A DNA stretch of 20,000 nt. Origin: an uncultured virus (IMG/VR IMGVR_UViG_3300027828_000003). Its lineage: Duplodnaviria; Heunggongvirae; Uroviricota; Caudoviricetes. Location of the stretch: IMG/VR virus record IMGVR_UViG_3300027828_000003, one strand, 5' to 3'. A program made the translations under genes and the position numbers. Positions 10,672 to 17,962 of the stretch are shown here, in pieces (the stretch's first letter is position 1; each line of letters opens with the position of its first letter). The notes under the pieces were generated by a model, which worked only from the letters and a program-made list of their open reading frames with translations, was not told the origin of the DNA and did not search any database.

Positions 10672-11289
10672 ATGCGTCTCCCCACCTATCGACTTCGTCA
10701 TCGGAAGACGAAGGAAATCCGTGTCGTCAATCAGACCGACTATCAGGCCAACCTGTCGAAGTTCTCCGATTACGAACGGATCGGCGAAACACGCGGCGAA
10801 GGCAACGAGATGATCGAAGTTTCGGGCGTCTCGACCGAACCGCCGGCCGGCGGCGAAGTGTTGGCGAACCTTGCGACCTTCGTGACGAAGGCCAAACAGG
10901 ACAACGACCTCGACGACGACGGTTGGGCTGCGCTCACCCAGGGCGAACGCGACGCCCTTATCCTGAAGGCCATGCAGCCCCAGACGACCGATGGCGCCCC
11001 GTCGCCGACGCCCACCACCGAAGAGCAACCGGCGCCCTCGTCGACCGAAACCGGAAACGCCGGTGAAGGCGATGACGGAAAGGCCGATGCTGACACGACC
11101 GACATCCGCGCCAAGATCGACGCGGAATGCGAGGACAAACGCGCGATCGAGGCCCGCATCCTTGAGGACTTCAAGGAAGACACCGACCTTCGCGTCTACA
11201 ACACGCGCGACAAGCTGCTTGATCGCTACGTCGAACTGCACACCGCGGCGGCCGCCAAGGCGGCTGAAGCCGGTCAGCAGACCGCGTAA
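10672..11289 (+). CDS. Hypothetical acidic, linker-rich protein (probably head-associated)
   Basis: AGGA RBS; phage-like codon usage; position after the capsid gene. Confidence 0.75.
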   Translation: MRLPTYRLRHRKTKEIRVVNQTDYQANLSKFSDYERIGETRGEGNEMIEVSGVSTEPPAGGEVLANLATFVTKAKQDNDLDDDGWAALTQGERDALILKAMQPQTTDGAPSPTPTTEEQPAPSSTETGNAGEGDDGKADADTTDIRAKIDAECEDKRAIEARILEDFKEDTDLRVYNTRDKLLDRYVELHTAAAAKAAEAGQQTA

Positions 11290-11372
11290 ACGGCCGACTT
11301 ACGCTCGCATCGGCGATGAGAGCCCTGCCGCCAATTGAGAACGCTAGGAACCTCGGCTGGGGGGTTTATTCA

Positions 11373-11795
11373 ATGGCACTTCTTCACTGGTTGGTGGCAC
11401 GGCTCTCTTCGCTCTTCTGGCGGACGGAGACCGCGCCGGCCCATATCGTCAGCGGAATGGCCTTGTGCGGATGGTCCTTCATCCTCAGCACGAACAAGGT
11501 CTTCGACGCGAGCAACCTCTATGACTACCTCAGCGACATCGCCGCGGAACCATTCTGGGCGTTCCTCACACTTATTCTCGGCGTCGTGCAGGTCGTCGAA
11601 CCGTTCCTACCCAGGCAATCAACCACCCACTGGGCCCGTATAGCGTTTTGGGTGTTCCCGGCGGCCTTCTGGCTCTACATCACAGCCATCGCCGTCCTGG
11701 CCGTCCCGACAACGACGATCGCCGCCTCTTCGGCTGTTTTCGCCGTCGCTTGCATTTGGGGCTTCGTGCGCGAGGTTGATATCAAGTGCCGGTAG
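11373..11795 (+). CDS. Multi-pass membrane protein (holin-like); alternative start 11316
   Basis: About four hydrophobic segments. Confidence 0.6.
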   Translation: MALLHWLVARLSSLFWRTETAPAHIVSGMALCGWSFILSTNKVFDASNLYDYLSDIAAEPFWAFLTLILGVVQVVEPFLPRQSTTHWARIAFWVFPAAFWLYITAIAVLAVPTTTIAASSAVFAVACIWGFVREVDIKCR

Positions 11796-12100
11796 ATCAA
11801 CTAACCCCCGAAAACACGACATTCGGCGGTTTGGTCGTCCTGGTTCTCTACTACCTTTGGCGGCGCATAAAGTCCGATACCTACGCTGATCGAACGGCAG
11901 ATCGCGAAGGCTCCTTTCGAGACGACGTCATCGCCATGAACAAGACGCTCAACGAGCGCTGCGACCAGTTCGCCCATGAGCGCAATGTCGCCCTGGCGAA
12001 AGTCGCCGAATTGAACACGAAGATCGCCATCATGCAGCGTGATCTGGATCGCGCCCGGGCCGGCTGCAACAACCCGGCCACATGCGGCTTCGCCGAATAG
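11786..12100 (+). CDS. N-terminal TM anchor plus coiled-coil protein (lysis-accessory-like)
   Basis: GAGG RBS before GTG; TM segment FGGLVVLVLYYLW, heptad-rich C-terminal half, terminal Cys pair. Confidence 0.65.
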   Translation: MPVDQLTPENTTFGGLVVLVLYYLWRRIKSDTYADRTADREGSFRDDVIAMNKTLNERCDQFAHERNVALAKVAELNTKIAIMQRDLDRARAGCNNPATCGFAE

Positions 12101-12112
12101 GAGACACCGCCC

Positions 12113-12619
12113 ATGTTCGCTGTCGAAGACGGTACCGGCGTTGCTGGTGCCAATTCATACGTGTCGCTTGCCGACGCGGACACATACTTCGCTGACCGGT
12201 CGAACTCGACGTGGGCAGCTCTTGACAACACCGTGAAACAGAAAGGCCTCCTGGACGCCACCGAGTACGTTGGGAGCCTCTACCGCGGTTCTTGGCTCGG
12301 CAGCCTCTATTCGACTGAGCAAGGCTTGGATTGGCCGCGTGTCGGCGCCTACGACCCGGAAGGTCGACCGCTTGATGGCGTACCGAAGGATCTACAAGCC
12401 GCGATCTGCCGCTTGGCGCTCGAATCAGCGACGAATGGCGATCTGGTCACGTCCCAGGACCGTGGCGGCCAGGTCAAACGGGAGAAGATCGGCCCGATCG
12501 AAACGGAATACGCCGATGGCGCACCGGCTGGTCGGACCTTCCCGTATCTCGACGATCTCCTGAGCAGCCTCGTCACCGGCAACCGCCGCGGCATGGTCGT
12601 GACGCTTCAGCGGCGATGA
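12113..12619 (+). CDS. Head-tail adaptor (DnaT-like family)
   Basis: VEDGTG..ANSYVS..ADTYF, QGLDWPR and EKIGPIETEY motifs. Confidence 0.88.
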   Translation: MFAVEDGTGVAGANSYVSLADADTYFADRSNSTWAALDNTVKQKGLLDATEYVGSLYRGSWLGSLYSTEQGLDWPRVGAYDPEGRPLDGVPKDLQAAICRLALESATNGDLVTSQDRGGQVKREKIGPIETEYADGAPAGRTFPYLDDLLSSLVTGNRRGMVVTLQRR

Positions 12620-12978
12620 ACAAAGCTCAAATCGCGGCGAAGGTCGAAGCAGCCTTCAACAAGCTGGGCGATCTTGCCTACAACGCGACGCTGACCAAGA
12701 AGACGCAGGGAACCTATAATCCCGGCGTCCTGGCGGCTTCGCAGACCGAAACGACATCGACCGGAAAACTCCTGTTCGACGAGGCCAGGATCAAACAGGC
12801 GGACTATCTCGCCGGCGCCAACATCAAACCGAGCGACGAAGTAGCTTTTCTGCAAGGCGTGTCTTTCGCGCCGGAGAAAGGTCACACGATCGACATCACT
12901 GGCATCGGCACCAAGGACATCATCTGGGCGAACGATTTGATGCGCTTGGGGGCGCTTTTCGTGGTCGTCCTGCGATGA
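12616..12978 (+). CDS. Head closure / head-tail joining protein
   Basis: ATGA-coupled to the adaptor; size and synteny; GTYNP motif. Confidence 0.7.
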   Translation: MNKAQIAAKVEAAFNKLGDLAYNATLTKKTQGTYNPGVLAASQTETTSTGKLLFDEARIKQADYLAGANIKPSDEVAFLQGVSFAPEKGHTIDITGIGTKDIIWANDLMRLGALFVVVLR

Positions 12979-13427
12979 CTGGCCGGTTCGAAACCAGACT
13001 GAGGATATTCGCCGACAAGGCAATGGCGAACGTCGATCTCGTTTTTCGGAAGGCGACGTTCGAAATCTATTCCCGCGTCATCATGCGGACACCGGTCGAT
13101 ACCGGTCGGGCGCGCGGCAACTGGCAGACAGCCGCCGACGCCTACCCGACGGGCGTCACGCTCACGGACGACAAAGGAAGCGTCAACCAATCGGGCCGCG
13201 GCAACAGCGTCGCAAAAAGCGCAATGGAGTCGACCGTCCTGTCTGGCCCGTATCAGCGGAAATTCGTTCTGCTCAACAACGTCCCGTACATCGGCGTTCT
13301 CGAGTACGGGCGCGAAAGTGGTGCCCCCGGCAGCATGCAGGCGCCGGCCGGCATGGTCCGCGTCACGATCGCGGAATTTCAGGCCCTCGTCGAGAAAGCG
13401 GGCGGCGAAGTGATCCGGAACAACTAA
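12975..13427 (+). CDS. Neck / tail-completion protein (HK97 gp10-like)
   Basis: RTPVDTGRARGNW, NNVPYIGVLEYG and QAPAGMVR motifs. Confidence 0.88.
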   Translation: MTGRFETRLRIFADKAMANVDLVFRKATFEIYSRVIMRTPVDTGRARGNWQTAADAYPTGVTLTDDKGSVNQSGRGNSVAKSAMESTVLSGPYQRKFVLLNNVPYIGVLEYGRESGAPGSMQAPAGMVRVTIAEFQALVEKAGGEVIRNN

Positions 13428-13450: not shown

Positions 13451-13927
13451 ATGGGTGACATCGTCTTCAACATCGCGAAAGGCCGTGTGAACGAGCTTTT
13501 CAACCGGGTGAAAACCAACGACCCGGCCAACAGCGCCATCGTCATGGTCATTCTCAAAACGACCGCGACCGACGCGACTCTGAAGGACTTCGATACCCTG
13601 GCCGCCATTCTGGCCGGTACCAGCGTCGAGGCCGACTTCACGAACTATGCGCGCCAGGTCCTCACGGACGCCGATCTCGCCGCACTGTCGCCCGATGACG
13701 GGGCCGATAGCATGGCTTCGGCGATCCCGCAGATCACCATCTCGTCCGCCGGCGGCGCGAGCAACAACACCCTGAACAAGGTTCTGTTCTGCTACGATCC
13801 GGACACGACCGGCGGCACGGATTCTGACCTGATCCCCCTCACCGCTCACGATGACGGCCGGACGACGGATGGGAACGATCTCATCTGGAACGCCGGCAAC
13901 ATCTTCAACGCAACCGATCCGGTTTAA
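13451..13927 (+). CDS. Putative virion structural protein
   Basis: AAGGAG RBS; small Asp/Thr/Ala-rich protein within the neck region. Confidence 0.7.
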   Translation: MGDIVFNIAKGRVNELFNRVKTNDPANSAIVMVILKTTATDATLKDFDTLAAILAGTSVEADFTNYARQVLTDADLAALSPDDGADSMASAIPQITISSAGGASNNTLNKVLFCYDPDTTGGTDSDLIPLTAHDDGRTTDGNDLIWNAGNIFNATDPV

Positions 13928-13941
13928 CGGGAGAAACAGAT

Positions 13942-14205
13942 ATGTCCCCACTCGTCACCGCCCGCGTAAACCGCCTTGCATCCGCGCTGCTGCAGGAACG
14001 GGAAGGAATTACCAACGCGGCAAACAAACTTGTTTCGGACATGACGACCCGCCGGAACAACCTCGCGGCCCATCGCGCCACGGTCCAGGCCGATTTGGAA
14101 TTCGACGCAGCGACAAAGACGGCACTTGAAGCCGACATCGACGCTATCGAAGCCGGCCTTTCCGCCAAGATCGACGAGGTCTATGCGACGCTGACCGGAT
14201 CGTAA
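13942..14205 (+). CDS. Small coiled-coil protein
   Basis: GGGAG RBS; heptad pattern throughout. Confidence 0.7.
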   Translation: MSPLVTARVNRLASALLQEREGITNAANKLVSDMTTRRNNLAAHRATVQADLEFDAATKTALEADIDAIEAGLSAKIDEVYATLTGS

Positions 14206-14206
14206 C

Positions 14207-16744
14207 ATGGCCATTCTGGATGACCTTGGTTTGACGCCGGAGATAGCGGTTTCCATCACCCGCTATCTTGTGGCCAGTTACACCGGACCAACCGTCCGGC
14301 TGGAAGACGCTGGCGCGAACCAAGCCGACTTCTACCCCGATGGTCTAGGCGGCATTGCACAAGGGTCTTCTCTTGGCGATGCCCCTTCGGTTTGGGGGAC
14401 CGCACCGTTCTCTATCGTCACGCTCTATGAACAGTCCAATGGCCGTGACTTCGATGTCGCCGTAAACGCTGGCGTCCTCGTGGATGATGTTCATCCCGCA
14501 GGGCTTTGGGGGGCTACCGGTCTTCAAATGGAAACCGGGACCGCTATCGACATGATCGCGAACGAAAGCGACAGTCGCGTCATTTCAGGCGTCGTTATGA
14601 ACAACGGCGATATTACGCCCCCCGGCGGTTCGGTAATATTCTTCGGGCAATCCGTAGCAAGTTTGGCTGGTTTGCATTTTGATTATTTTGACGAACTTGA
14701 CGGTACGCCCGCTAATAAAATTCGGGGCAAAGTTGTTGGCGATAGTGGTGCACCAATTGCCGTAGGCGCTGATCTTGTCGCGGAAGGCAACACCGTCGTT
14801 TTTCAAGCGTTGAAGCCTCATGCCGGGACTAGCAGCGACGTTAATGCTTGGACTGTAGACGACATCGAGTTGTACACCGAAGATGCTCTAGACGCTCAAG
14901 TTCTCGTCGCTGATGGCGCTAGATGGGATTTTCGTGTCTTCGATTGGACGATCCGAACGCAAATTGCGGACGCCGACGAAGACTTCGTATTCTTTGAAGG
15001 CGTCGTTCTTCGCAGTAGTTCTGATATTTCCGACGCTACCCGTTCCGCCTTGGCGCAAGACCAGATGGCGTACTATGAAACGCGAGATTATGTGCCAGGT
15101 AGCGGAGGGACAAATCTTACAACAAGCCAAGAACGATCCACCGCCATTGCCCTGTCCCTCGCGACCGCGAAAACCATCGGTGCCGCTGCCGAGGTAGATG
15201 TATCAATAGCTCTATCGAAAGGGCTTGCTACAGACCTTGGCATAGCGACGGAAACAGCCGTTGCGCTGCCTTTGACGACAAAGACGGCCAGGACGCTCCT
15301 TACTGCGCTCGAAGCCGATGCGGCTGGCGATCTGGCGCTTGCGGTCGCCAAGGCATTGGGTGGCGCCGCGGAAACGGATCAGGCGGCCGCCCTAGACACG
15401 AGCGAAGCTCTGACCTTGCAGCCTGCGACGGAGGTAAACCGGGCCCTGACGCTGCTGGCCGGTCTGTTCCTGGGCACGGCAACCGACAACGAGACGGCCA
15501 TCCCGTTGTCGACCGCGACTATCCGAACGCTTGGATTGGTGAGCGAAGCGGAAAACGCTCTGCCGATCACGCTTGCAGCTGCCAAGACCCTCGGGATCGC
15601 TGGCGACGAGGAAGCCGCGCTCGTTCTGAGCAGACCTACGATCAAAACACTGCTTGCGGCTGCGGCAGTGGACTTCGCGGTCATGCTCAGTCGTGGAACG
15701 GCCTTGAACCTGTCAACCGCGGTGGAAGAGGACGCAGCGGCGTCAATGTCCCTCGCATCGGCCCTGACGATCGTCACGGCGGCGGAAAGCAGCGACGCCA
15801 TCCTGCTTTCGCGACCGACATTGAAGAGCCTTGGTCTGGCTTCCGAGCAAAACCTCGCCATTCCACTCTCGTCGACCGAACATCTCGGGCCCTACACGAA
15901 GATCCAAAGGGCGATTGATCTGCGTCTTGCCCAATACCAGGACGAGAACGTGGCTTGGGAGAACTTCTCCTACGAGCCCAAGACTGGTACGCCTTACCTG
16001 AAGCCGTTTCTTCTACCGGCAGAACCGAACGTCTTGACCGTCGGCGTAAAGCCCTTCCTGCAGAACACCGGCATCTATCAAATCTCGGTCGTTCACCCGA
16101 TCGGTGAAGGGAAAGCGGCGGCCGTGAAGCAGGCGGACGAACTCGTCACTCACTTCAAGCGCGGTACGGTTCTGAGCCTTGGCAGCCTCACTGTTCGCAT
16201 CGACCGTTGCTGGCATGGCTCACCGCAGAAGAGCGAGGCTTGGTACGTCGTCCCGGTATCCTTCATCTGGCGCGCGGAGACGCAGGAGAGCGCTTTTCCG
16301 ATCTCCTACAACCTGGGGGCCAGCGAGACCGTCGGCGGGAACTACGAGACCATCCAGCGCGCCTTGGACAGCGTTCTGTTCCAGTATCAGAGCGAAAACG
16401 TGGCCTGGGAGAATGTCCAGTACGAGCCGACGACCGGCACGCCCTATCTGGAACCCTATTTCAATCCGAACGAGCCCACACAGGCCGAGAGGAACGCCGG
16501 CGCGGCCAACCGCATTACCGGCACCTACGAGATCATGGTCTATGGGCCTCATGGCCCCGGCAAGAAAGCGGTCATCGAGAAGGCCGACGCCATCATCAAC
16601 AAGTTTCGCGCCGGATCGACCATAAAGCTCGACGGCCGCGCGATACGCATCGAACGGGCATGGCAAGCCACTGCCGTGCCGATGGAAGCCTGGATCCAGG
16701 TTCCCGTCACCATCTTCTGGCGGGTCGACACACCCAACCAGTAG
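14207..16744 (+). CDS. Fibre-like protein fused to two tandem tail-terminator-like domains
   Basis: Globular N-terminus, 13 repeats of about 20 aa (15113-15886), then two homologous ~130-aa domains (15893-16279, 16340-16741). It occupies the tail-terminator slot before the tail tube. Confidence 0.8.
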   Translation: MAILDDLGLTPEIAVSITRYLVASYTGPTVRLEDAGANQADFYPDGLGGIAQGSSLGDAPSVWGTAPFSIVTLYEQSNGRDFDVAVNAGVLVDDVHPAGLWGATGLQMETGTAIDMIANESDSRVISGVVMNNGDITPPGGSVIFFGQSVASLAGLHFDYFDELDGTPANKIRGKVVGDSGAPIAVGADLVAEGNTVVFQALKPHAGTSSDVNAWTVDDIELYTEDALDAQVLVADGARWDFRVFDWTIRTQIADADEDFVFFEGVVLRSSSDISDATRSALAQDQMAYYETRDYVPGSGGTNLTTSQERSTAIALSLATAKTIGAAAEVDVSIALSKGLATDLGIATETAVALPLTTKTARTLLTALEADAAGDLALAVAKALGGAAETDQAAALDTSEALTLQPATEVNRALTLLAGLFLGTATDNETAIPLSTATIRTLGLVSEAENALPITLAAAKTLGIAGDEEAALVLSRPTIKTLLAAAAVDFAVMLSRGTALNLSTAVEEDAAASMSLASALTIVTAAESSDAILLSRPTLKSLGLASEQNLAIPLSSTEHLGPYTKIQRAIDLRLAQYQDENVAWENFSYEPKTGTPYLKPFLLPAEPNVLTVGVKPFLQNTGIYQISVVHPIGEGKAAAVKQADELVTHFKRGTVLSLGSLTVRIDRCWHGSPQKSEAWYVVPVSFIWRAETQESAFPISYNLGASETVGGNYETIQRALDSVLFQYQSENVAWENVQYEPTTGTPYLEPYFNPNEPTQAERNAGAANRITGTYEIMVYGPHGPGKKAVIEKADAIINKFRAGSTIKLDGRAIRIERAWQATAVPMEAWIQVPVTIFWRVDTPNQ

Positions 16745-16807
16745 GCGTCCCCAGCGGCGCACACGCACCGCCCGACGGCGGCCCTTTCACATATGGAGGA
16801 CAATCCA

Positions 16808-17962
16808 ATGTTCGCTTCCGGTTCTGAACATGCCGTCAGCTACGTGGCGGAATCGACCTATGCGACCACGCCCGGCTCGCCGACCATGAAGGCGCTCCGC
16901 ACGCGCGATGGCGTCAATCTCAACATGACGAAACAGACGCTCACGTCGCAGGAAACCCGCGATGACCGGCAAATCGTCACCGAACGGCACGGCAACCAGC
17001 AATCCGCCGGCGATCTGCCGTTTGAACTGTCCTACAGCAGCCAGGACGATTTCATCGAAGCGGCGCTGATGGGCACTTGGGCGGCTTCGGTCGACCTGAC
17101 CGCGACCGATATCAGCGCGGCCAATTCGGACAACTCGTTCAACACCGTCGGCGCGGTCGATTTCTCGGCTTTCGAGACGGGCGACGAGATCACGGTTTCG
17201 GGCTTCACCGATCCGGACAACAACGGCACCTTCGTCATCGCCACGAAGACCAGCACGAAGATCACCGTCACCGGCGGGACGCTGGCGGATGAGGCGGCGG
17301 GCGATAGTGTCCAGATCGTTTCTTCCCGGCAGAAAGTCACCGCCGGCAAGGTGAACCGCAGTTTCACGATCGAGCGCCGTTTCACCGATATCACCCAGTT
17401 CTTCCGCTATGTCGGCCAGCGTGTGAACACCTTCAATCTCAACATCGCCCCGAATGCCATGGTCACGGGCACCTTCGGCATGGTCGGGTCCGGCCTGACC
17501 CCGTCTGGCACCTCGCTCGGCACGCCGACGGCCGCCCCGACGACGGAAGTCCTGGACAGCTTCACCGGCGTGCTGAAGGAAAACGACACCGAGATCGCCA
17601 TTGTCACCGGTCTCGACCTCAGCCTCGACAACGGCGTGAACCCGCTGTTCGTCGTCGGGTCCAAACAGGTCGCGGAGACCGACCGCGGCCGCAGCAACCT
17701 GACAGGATCGCTGACCGCCTACTTCCCCGACGCGACGCTGCTCAACAAATTCGTCAACGAGACGGAAAGCTCGCTCTACATCACCCTGCCGGACGCCGCC
17801 GGGAACGAGATCCGCATCAATCTGCCGCGGATCAAATACAACGGCGCCGACATCCCGCAGAGCGGTGAAGGCGCGCTCGTGCAGACCCTTCCAATCCGTG
17901 CCCTTCGGGACGCGACGGAGGGGACGAACATCGTCTGGGAGCGGAAGCCGACCACTTCCTAA
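16808..17962 (+). CDS. Major tail tube protein with an inserted beta domain
   Basis: GGAGG RBS before ATG 16808; YVAESTYATTP, SQETRDDRQ and RSFTIERRFTDI motifs; insert FETGDEITVSGF..NNGTF. Confidence 0.88.
   Translation: MFASGSEHAVSYVAESTYATTPGSPTMKALRTRDGVNLNMTKQTLTSQETRDDRQIVTERHGNQQSAGDLPFELSYSSQDDFIEAALMGTWAASVDLTATDISAANSDNSFNTVGAVDFSAFETGDEITVSGFTDPDNNGTFVIATKTSTKITVTGGTLADEAAGDSVQIVSSRQKVTAGKVNRSFTIERRFTDITQFFRYVGQRVNTFNLNIAPNAMVTGTFGMVGSGLTPSGTSLGTPTAAPTTEVLDSFTGVLKENDTEIAIVTGLDLSLDNGVNPLFVVGSKQVAETDRGRSNLTGSLTAYFPDATLLNKFVNETESSLYITLPDAAGNEIRINLPRIKYNGADIPQSGEGALVQTLPIRALRDATEGTNIVWERKPTTS

Follow-up and report, generated by a model that had tools for sequence, protein, structure and literature searches.

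A putative beads-on-a-string neck whisker anchored by a duplicated tail terminator in an uncultured siphophage-like virus

Introduction

Fibres built like beads on a string are so far known from a handful of cryo-electron microscopy (cryo-EM) structures, and tail terminators are usually regarded as small, invariant caps. Here we describe a gene pair that may bring the two together. It lies in a stretch of 20,000 nucleotides from an uncultured virus of the Caudoviricetes (IMG/VR record IMGVR_UViG_3300027828_000003; the whole stretch is called the window below). It comprises P0001, a protein of 845 amino acids (aa) encoded at 14207..16744 on the + strand that carries two tail-terminator domains behind a long repeat region, and P0152, a small protein encoded just upstream on the same strand. 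We propose, with a probability of roughly 55%, that P0001 and P0152 form a beads-on-a-string neck whisker with a glycan-binding-like tip, anchored by the duplicated terminator.

Among the described systems, the podophage A1002 possesses 11 dimers of gp80-like proteins (147-171 aa) that each form an augmented β-sheet with the fibre-dock "rope" of gp39; this rope is ~300 Å long, bears an immunoglobulin-like (Ig-like) domain at its end and is anchored by a C-terminal platform domain (PMC13730344). For GP4 the same source, citing the work on that phage, gives a separate rope protein and five dimers. In the myophage Bas63 whisker dimers surround, "such as beads on a string", the N-terminal rope of a protein of the neck collar (PMC12609058). 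In A511 a baseplate protein (BW3) has an extended chain on which three gp105 dimers are strung, and the garland proteins of Milano have the A511 gp105 fold (PMC10811340). As for the anchor, terminators form hexamers on top of the last tube ring according to the paper on T5, and within the hexamer a subunit uses its N- and C-termini to contact a sheet/helix face of its neighbour. The same paper describes a tube protein, pb6, in which a duplicated domain leads to a trimer with pseudo-six-fold symmetry (PMC11784142).

The tandem terminator and related fusions

A reading of the window from its sequence only had seen two homologous domains at the long protein's C-terminus and had assigned them to the tail terminators, and profile searches bear this out. 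PF13554 (Phage_tail_terminator_5) matches P0001 in two stretches with 143.6 bits (cut-off 27, E-value (E) 4.9e-42), phrog_179 "tail terminator" with E 6.7e-51, and by sequence it matches three solved chains of the PDB, 2l25_A, 10lj_B ("Terminator protein gp14") and 9jlf_D ("Terminator protein"). The first domain, D1, comprises residues 563-693 (15893..16285, + strand; PF13554, custom hidden Markov model (HMM), 2l25_A with E 1.8e-10) and the second, D2, residues 712-844 (16340..16738, + strand; PF13554, custom HMM, 10lj_B with E 5.7e-6), with a linker of 18 residues in the gap between the two custom-HMM envelopes (residues 694-711, 16286..16339, + strand). They share 59/132 identical positions (45%, E 6e-42) and each aligns over its full length with 29 single-domain terminators, in whose alignment nine columns are conserved; D1 deviates at one of these (I for L) and D2 also at one (G53). 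Judged by these comparisons D1 and D2 are genuine, complete tail-terminator domains. A tree of the two together with the 29 terminators does not resolve their branching, including whether the duplication arose in place. The protein as a whole departs from the usual single-domain size (~130-160 residues), as it has 845 residues, two domains and an N-terminal extension of 560 residues.

When P0001 was compared by tblastn with 50,697 phage records, 44 matched and none covered 80% or more of the query, the listed matches all lying inside residues 548-845. A word search with residues 1-845 among 7,999 candidates of 464-1479 aa revealed no full-length relative. HMMER gave 2,027 matches among 1.84 billion representatives, the best 150 of which fall in three separate classes (N-domain homologues, large repeat-only sharers and terminators), none of them covering all parts of P0001. 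A second tandem terminator was not found in the protein searches, an absence that is provisional because it is based on the best 150 of the 2,027 matches. A scan of GTDB genomes with the tandem region returned no relative, and a metagenome scan with the N-domain homologue P0002 returned solely an 80-kb contig, 87% identical to P0002, that is taken as the window's own record.

By sequence, long fusions ending in one terminator recur. Among the same best 150 matches P0014, P0018, P0064 and P0076 are long proteins that end in a single terminator, and a word search with residues 561-845 yielded only P0275, a fifth fusion of this kind. These five proteins (644-866 aa) align over one common conserved N-terminal module, which Pfam assigns in P0018, P0064 and P0275 to right-handed beta-helix / DUF5123, in one case with fn3; from these assignments they look like neck-anchored polysaccharide-degrading spikes. 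They resemble P0001 in the long, carbohydrate-active-looking N-terminal module, the C-terminal PF13554 domain and the presumable use of the terminator as a neck anchor, but they differ from it in that they have a single terminator domain and lack both rope repeats and bead. A beta-helix protein of 851 aa related to the N-terminal part of these fusions is encoded in another viral contig (L104, 5938-8493) between capsid/cement and tail genes; its C-terminal part gives no PF13554 match.

Since P0001 has terminator domains, occupies the terminator slot and is encoded by an intact open reading frame (ORF), the interpretation that suggests itself is an appendage attached to the tail at its head-proximal end. 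P0001 would then serve both as the tail terminator and as anchor and backbone of a neck whisker; the tandem PF13554 domains would take the terminator positions atop the last tail-tube ring, and the N-terminal 560 residues would project outward from this ring. The simplest filling would be three chains in six positions, and by analogy such a pseudo-hexamer, the 6-to-3 reduction proposed in the sequence-only reading, is plausible. The same whisker could also be carried by six chains, with one domain of each in the canonical hexamer and the other in a second stacked ring or outer collar, so that six whiskers would result. In all structures cited by the T5 paper siphophage terminators are hexameric, their fold is tube-like and rings stack, and the His-tagged T5 terminator polymerises into fibres (PMC11784142, as far as the quoted passages go); moreover, the single-domain beta-helix fusions would give six appendages, so that six-fold neck appendages appear viable. 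We nevertheless consider six chains unlikely and favour the three-chain ring because D1 and D2 keep nearly all family-conserved positions, an indication that the tube and ring contacts of both are still the same, because a linker of just 18 residues suits neighbours within one ring, and because pb6 shows in the quoted part of the T5 work that duplication to a trimeric pseudo-hexamer functions in this machinery (PMC11784142).

Integrity and expression of the reading frame

A stop or frameshift in the reads could have split so long a reading frame, as the sequence-only reading had itself pointed out, but the frame is unbroken. The ORF 14207-16744 reads through 845 aa without a stop and its protein is identical in the viral contigs L002 and L003 (L001 and L003 are one record), with DNA mismatches of 1 and 0, respectively (L002: 1 in 4281 nt). 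Logan contigs from three sequencing runs (X1-X3) cover the ORF and list no insertion or deletion. One contig of X1 extends across 14079-16900 and one contig of X3 across 14284-16377, each with 0 differences, and the latter spans both the rope-D1 and the D1-D2 junctions. X1 and X2 are possibly the samples from which the window itself stems, and the three runs, all metagenomes of marine sediment, date from one year, which limits their independence; because they share year and habitat, their agreement speaks for a reproducible assembly and not for wide occurrence.

As a rival explanation, the long ORF would not be the functional product: a short virion terminator would arise by internal initiation or proteolysis, or the fusion would be an assembly artefact or a decaying gene. 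In favour of such an explanation one can cite that three protein searches found no relative of full architecture and that no Shine-Dalgarno (SD) site precedes the P0001 start. It is nonetheless very improbable, since the contigs of three runs and two viral records agree without any indel, no internal in-frame ATG, GTG or TTG of P0001 has an SD match of 5 or more bases, all four parts of the protein keep family-typical conservation and other long terminator fusions exist. Translational coupling of P0001 to the preceding gene, P0153, is likely because the P0153 stop sits 1 nt before the P0001 ATG. The gene for P0152 has a strong SD site (AAGGAG), and this difference between the proposed bead gene and the rope gene is a hint, from sequence, that agrees with a many-to-one stoichiometry.

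The proposed bead and its rope

P0152 (158 aa, 13451..13927, + strand; phrog_26662) is proposed from its predicted fold to be the bead, i.e., a dimer subunit of the whisker/garland type. It belongs to a strongly conserved and unannotated family of at least 2,276 proteins at E ≤0.001, which are ~55-67% identical. The AlphaFold2 (AF2) model built from an alignment of 45 sequences has a predicted local distance difference test (pLDDT) value of 92.5 and a predicted template modelling score (pTM) of 0.88. With this model, the first PDB match in Foldseek is 8jou_a (GP4 fibre I; E 9.5e-3, probability 1.00). VIA, run exhaustively against 48,161 chains, places structural proteins of viruses in all of the first eight positions: Lilla1 baseplate (9.7), GP4 fibre I (8.4), Bxb1 tip (7.4), Sf14 neck (6.8), HFTV1 (6.6), 7-7-1 (6.0), phi812 (5.0) and phiKZ gp139 (4.7), the remainder scoring at most 4.1. 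P0152 has on this evidence the predicted fold of a small bead protein of the gp80/whisker class and is a probable whisker bead. By sequence it is not a member of PF23140 (Gp80), and no Pfam family matches it at E up to 10. Homology to PF23140 at the sequence level was also considered; BLASTP gave no support for it, and hhalign of the P0152 family against P0110, a protein with PF23140 domains, gave a probability of 0.09.

The 13 repeats of about 20 aa that had been read from the sequence are confirmed. They occupy residues ~303-560 of P0001 (15113..15886, + strand; phrog_14065) and share the conserved core E-x-D-x-A. Over residues 296-565 the BLOSUM autocorrelation has maxima at lags of 20, 40 and 60 (z = 9.4, 10.7 and 7.6 against 200 shuffles), and all 13 units are visible. 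At the DNA level the repeat region shows no tandem repeat, and the repeats are therefore old and diverged. Taken alone, the repeat region obtains no confident fold in AF2 (alignment of 9 sequences; pLDDT 39.7, pTM 0.28). Its model contains 22 short strands, mostly in a 20-residue rhythm and about two per repeat, which fits a rope and also an obligate oligomer; ~two strands per repeat would suit one bead dimer per repeat. A search of PDB sequences with the rope profile found no relative, the best hit (E 1.3) being an unrelated lipoprotein.

Linkage of the two genes was followed in viral contigs. A pattern scan detected at least 412 stretches that encode a P0152 relative; 80 loci were kept, and after removal of 12 with identical bead DNA 68 distinct loci remained. 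A periodic ORF, defined as one on the same strand with at least 150 aa and a 20-residue periodicity score >0.8, is present in 39 of these 68 loci, and in 32 of the 68 its score exceeds 1.2. It lies downstream in 30 of the 46 loci that have at least 4 kb downstream, and where both flanks reach at least 4 kb it is found in 23 of 33 loci. At the control lags 17, 23, 26 and 30 only 1 to 5 ORFs of the same loci pass the threshold. Besides P0001, 15 control phage loci together with the window (169,730 bases) contain only two periodic ORFs, both long and at 0.92, and none above 1.2. In the window as well, bead and rope genes adjoin. No third component is conserved between the two genes (66 intervening ORFs in 31 loci, the largest cluster covering 4 loci). 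None of the 80 bead loci holds a PF13554 terminator, so that anchoring by a terminator is special to this phage.

The pair crosses virion types. In the contig L008 it is located in a Mu-like (myophage) baseplate and fibre region, and the rope ORF there is 39% identical to the P0001 repeats (E 1e-16). In the cultured Streptomyces phage Hiyaa (L007, 7001-10801) gp12, a P0152 homologue with 39% identity, directly precedes gp13, a "minor tail protein" of 1,110 aa whose N-terminal half is large and free of repeats and which has ~23 repeats of 20 aa; the pair is flanked by the capsid genes on one side and by the head-to-tail adaptor on the other. Together with the siphophage described here, a myophage-like virus and an actinophage thus possess it. 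The common motif in the alignment of rope ORFs is G-x-A-x-E-T-D-x-A-x-A-L. The same repeats as in P0001 occur in P0110 (849 aa) in near-perfect form, in two blocks of ~6 and ~12 copies followed by two domains of PF23140 ("Podophage GP4 fiber I protein gp80"); judged from its sequence P0110 appears to be a natural one-chain fusion of rope and bead pair, and it has no PDB match. In the Pseudanabaena phage Pam4 (L006, 7001-12424) the P0152 homologue Pam4_34 adjoins a polysaccharide lyase gene, and the 1,290-aa protein beside it contains a few similar repeats near its N-terminus and at residues ~460-540.

The sequence-only reading had taken the repeats for a fibre on the terminator. Of this the neck-anchored appendage stands, whereas a self-assembling or trimeric fibre is less likely than an extended rope that threads P0152 dimers. 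If the repeats did fold by themselves, either into one fibre per chain or into one trimeric beta-fibre, P0152 would be an unrelated neighbour, for instance a decoration or a connector of the baseplate type. Oligomerisation could indeed turn the strand-rich 20-residue rhythm into a beta-helix or a triple beta-spiral, the three strands of one trimeric fibre would be available from a three-chain ring, obligate trimers are expected to show low monomer confidence, and 29 of the 68 bead loci have no detectable periodic ORF. We regard this as quite unlikely, even somewhat more so than six chains, because bead and rope genes are paired in L008, in Hiyaa and in this siphophage, because P0110 carries these repeats in one chain with GP4-gp80 domains and because the repeat profile matches no solved fibre, while solved proteins of the bead fold are, in the quoted passages, threaded by extended chains (PMC12609058, PMC10811340). 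The repeats are thus probably an extended rope and not a self-folding fibre. In the beads-on-a-string whisker the thirteen repeats would run extended through P0152 dimers and so offer ~13 docking sites, each repeat contributing about two short β-strands that complete the incomplete sandwiches of one dimer. We infer physical threading and a copy number of ~13 dimers per whisker, whose length would be roughly 35 nm if the spacing of A1002 applies.

A broader interpretation, which we offer tentatively, is that the bead family and the 20-aa E-x-D-x-A repeat constitute a widespread, portable two-gene whisker kit that is plugged here into a duplicated terminator and gives three whiskers. The number of repeats would set the length of the whisker (division of the repeat extents of the ORFs gives ~7 to 28 repeats, 13 in this case), and the kit could apparently be plugged into any ring-forming virion protein. 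The terminator would have been duplicated after insertion of the kit, and the outcome would be three whiskers of ~35 nm, each with ~26 beads and a glycan-binding tip.

The distal domain and P0153

The N-terminal residues 1-295 of P0001 (14207..15091, + strand) are predicted from the ESM Atlas structure search to form a distal β-sandwich that is GH54-catalytic-like or similar to ConA-type lectins. For residues 1-300 Pfam gives no family at E up to 10, which includes PF09206. The closest Atlas models are clusters of PF09206 (GH54 arabinofuranosidase) with template modelling (TM) scores of 0.71-0.73 by query over 263-271 residues, values that fall under the search's own bar for naming a family, and the Atlas model of the whole protein has a pLDDT of 0.58. 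Viral clusters with Laminin_G_3 are found among the same Atlas rows. A further viral cluster (57 members, ~710 aa) combines PF11367 (Tail_completion_gp17) with a PF09206-like domain, which suggests on the level of models that a second family of neck or tail-end proteins has gained the same kind of β-sandwich. These leads fit a carbohydrate-binding or -cleaving tip. The ConA/GH54-like β-sandwich would cap the far, N-terminal end of the whisker, where it would probably bind, or perhaps cleave, a host surface glycan in a first, reversible contact.

Four homologues of the N-domain, P0002, P0003, P0005 and P0007, are present among the best 150 of the 2,027 HMMER matches. P0003 (455 aa) has an N-domain 49% identical to that of P0001, followed by different repeats of ~22 aa, and no terminator. 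Its gene is located after a P0153-like gene on a second contig in the runs (4,983 nt in X1 and X2), which matches the window at 13942-14229 and 15023-15093. As the read depth of the P0003 contig tracks that of the phage in the three runs (19 versus 19.7, 14.3 versus 15.4 and 4-6 versus 5.5), this contig may be a second locus of the same genome, e.g., one for a tail fibre.

The sequence-only reading had counted two additional small structural-looking genes directly upstream of P0001. Both are present on the + strand (13451-13927 and 13942-14205) and fared differently, P0152 now being a probable bead and P0153 being without a family. P0153 (87 aa, 13942..14205) is encoded between P0152 and the 845-aa gene; neither a family nor an Atlas match was found for it, and a search of 82 loci, among them 80 bead loci, gave no homologue. 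The copy that precedes P0003 in contigs of the same runs has 91% DNA identity (25 differences in 288 nt in X3), an indication that the 87-aa gene moves together with the N-domain and not with the bead.

Gene neighbourhood

According to Pfam and PHROG assignments the window represents the late structural module, on the + strand, of a siphophage-like virus. In order, it encodes the portal (DUF4055), a MuF-like protein, the scaffold, a P22-type coat, three small proteins of unknown function, Ad1, head closure, Neck1, the two small genes, the 845-aa ORF, tube, chaperone and tape measure. The Ad1 adaptor is encoded at 12113-12619 (+ strand; PF20557 / phrog_477), the head closure protein Hc1 at 12616-12978 (+ strand; phrog_161) and Neck1, a tail completion protein of 150 aa, at 12975..13427 (+ strand; phrog_169, E 8.3e-37); with Neck1 the canonical neck genes end and the inserted module begins. 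The tube protein that would carry the terminator on its ring (389 aa) follows at 16793..17962 (+ strand; PF18906, E 2.2e-48). The 845-aa gene is thus placed between neck genes and tube gene, i.e., in the terminator slot, as had been read from the sequence. In two cultured relatives, the Xanthomonas phage Elanor and the Pseudomonas phage PaMx28, which otherwise have a matching gene order, a terminator of ~140 aa comes directly after Neck1.

Two observations concern the neighbours themselves. The PF18906 profile (266 positions) covers residues 10-370 of the 389-aa tube protein and the tubes of relatives have ~305-312 aa; because its length exceeds both, it carries an insertion of ~80-100 residues, possibly a surface domain. 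The interval between coat and adaptor (10672-12100) contains three genes (205, 159 and 104 aa) that match only phrog_8980, of unknown function, and weakly phrog_2658.

Significance

If the reading as a two-gene whisker kit is correct, this would be the first 6-to-3 symmetry reduction at the level of the terminator and the first case of neck whiskers of this type on a siphophage. P0001 suggests that terminators can be platforms for host-sensing appendages and that they can duplicate to a trimer as the T5 tube does. Solved beads-on-a-string fibres show no detected sequence similarity to this bead family or to the repeat; the bead family plus the 20-aa repeat would be a sequence signature for such fibres in thousands of uncultured phages, and fibre length would become predictable from the number of repeats. 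The PHROGs 26662 and 14065, both of "unknown function", would gain a testable role, and Hiyaa, being in culture, would lend itself to testing the bead-and-rope idea. An unannotated, very common and potentially useful bead-plus-rope gene pair is a by-product of this analysis.

Comparison with known systems

The closest known systems are the collar-whisker complex of Bas63/Sf14 and the chain-like fibres of GP4/A1002. In Bas63/Sf14 (Felixounavirus; PDB 9mt4, 9c39) a dodecameric Ig-like collar, located where adaptor and head completion proteins meet, serves as the anchor, whereas here this role falls to a duplicated terminator. The rope in these myophages is a short N-terminal extension with 2 dimers, and the whiskers number 12, in contrast with the 13 repeats and the large distal domain of P0001 in a siphophage. 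Their collar-whisker proteins have no detectable sequence similarity to the bead and rope described here.

In GP4 (fibre I gp80, PF23140, PDB 8jou), VP1 and A1002 (gp39 with gp40/gp41) the fibres are anchored at the nozzle or fibre-tail adaptor of a podophage tail. A1002 gp39 shares with P0001 the order of distal domain, rope and C-terminal anchor, but P0152 does not belong to PF23140 by sequence and the E-x-D-x-A repeat of 20 aa matches no solved rope. The "BW3TFN" connectors around A511 gp105 / T4 gp8 and the garlands of Milano / 7-7-1 are described at the baseplate, as connectors or as a garland, and not at the neck.

P0001 lies in the canonical gene slot of siphophage tail terminators (lambda gpU, SPP1 gp17, T5 p142; 2L25 as founder of PF13554), and D1 and D2 each match PF13554 over its full length. 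The terminators known so far consist of one domain (161 residues in T5) and form hexamers, whereas P0001 has two domains per chain and an N-terminal extension of 560 residues (PMC11784142 for the known proteins). T5 pb6 offers an earlier example of a ring-forming tail domain that was duplicated and fused to give a trimeric pseudo-six-fold ring, but in T5 this duplication lies in the tube and the terminator stays a hexamer (PMC11784142). Compared with all these systems the locus is new in its duplicated-terminator anchor, its siphophage virion, its 13 sites, its large distal domain and its unrelated sequences.

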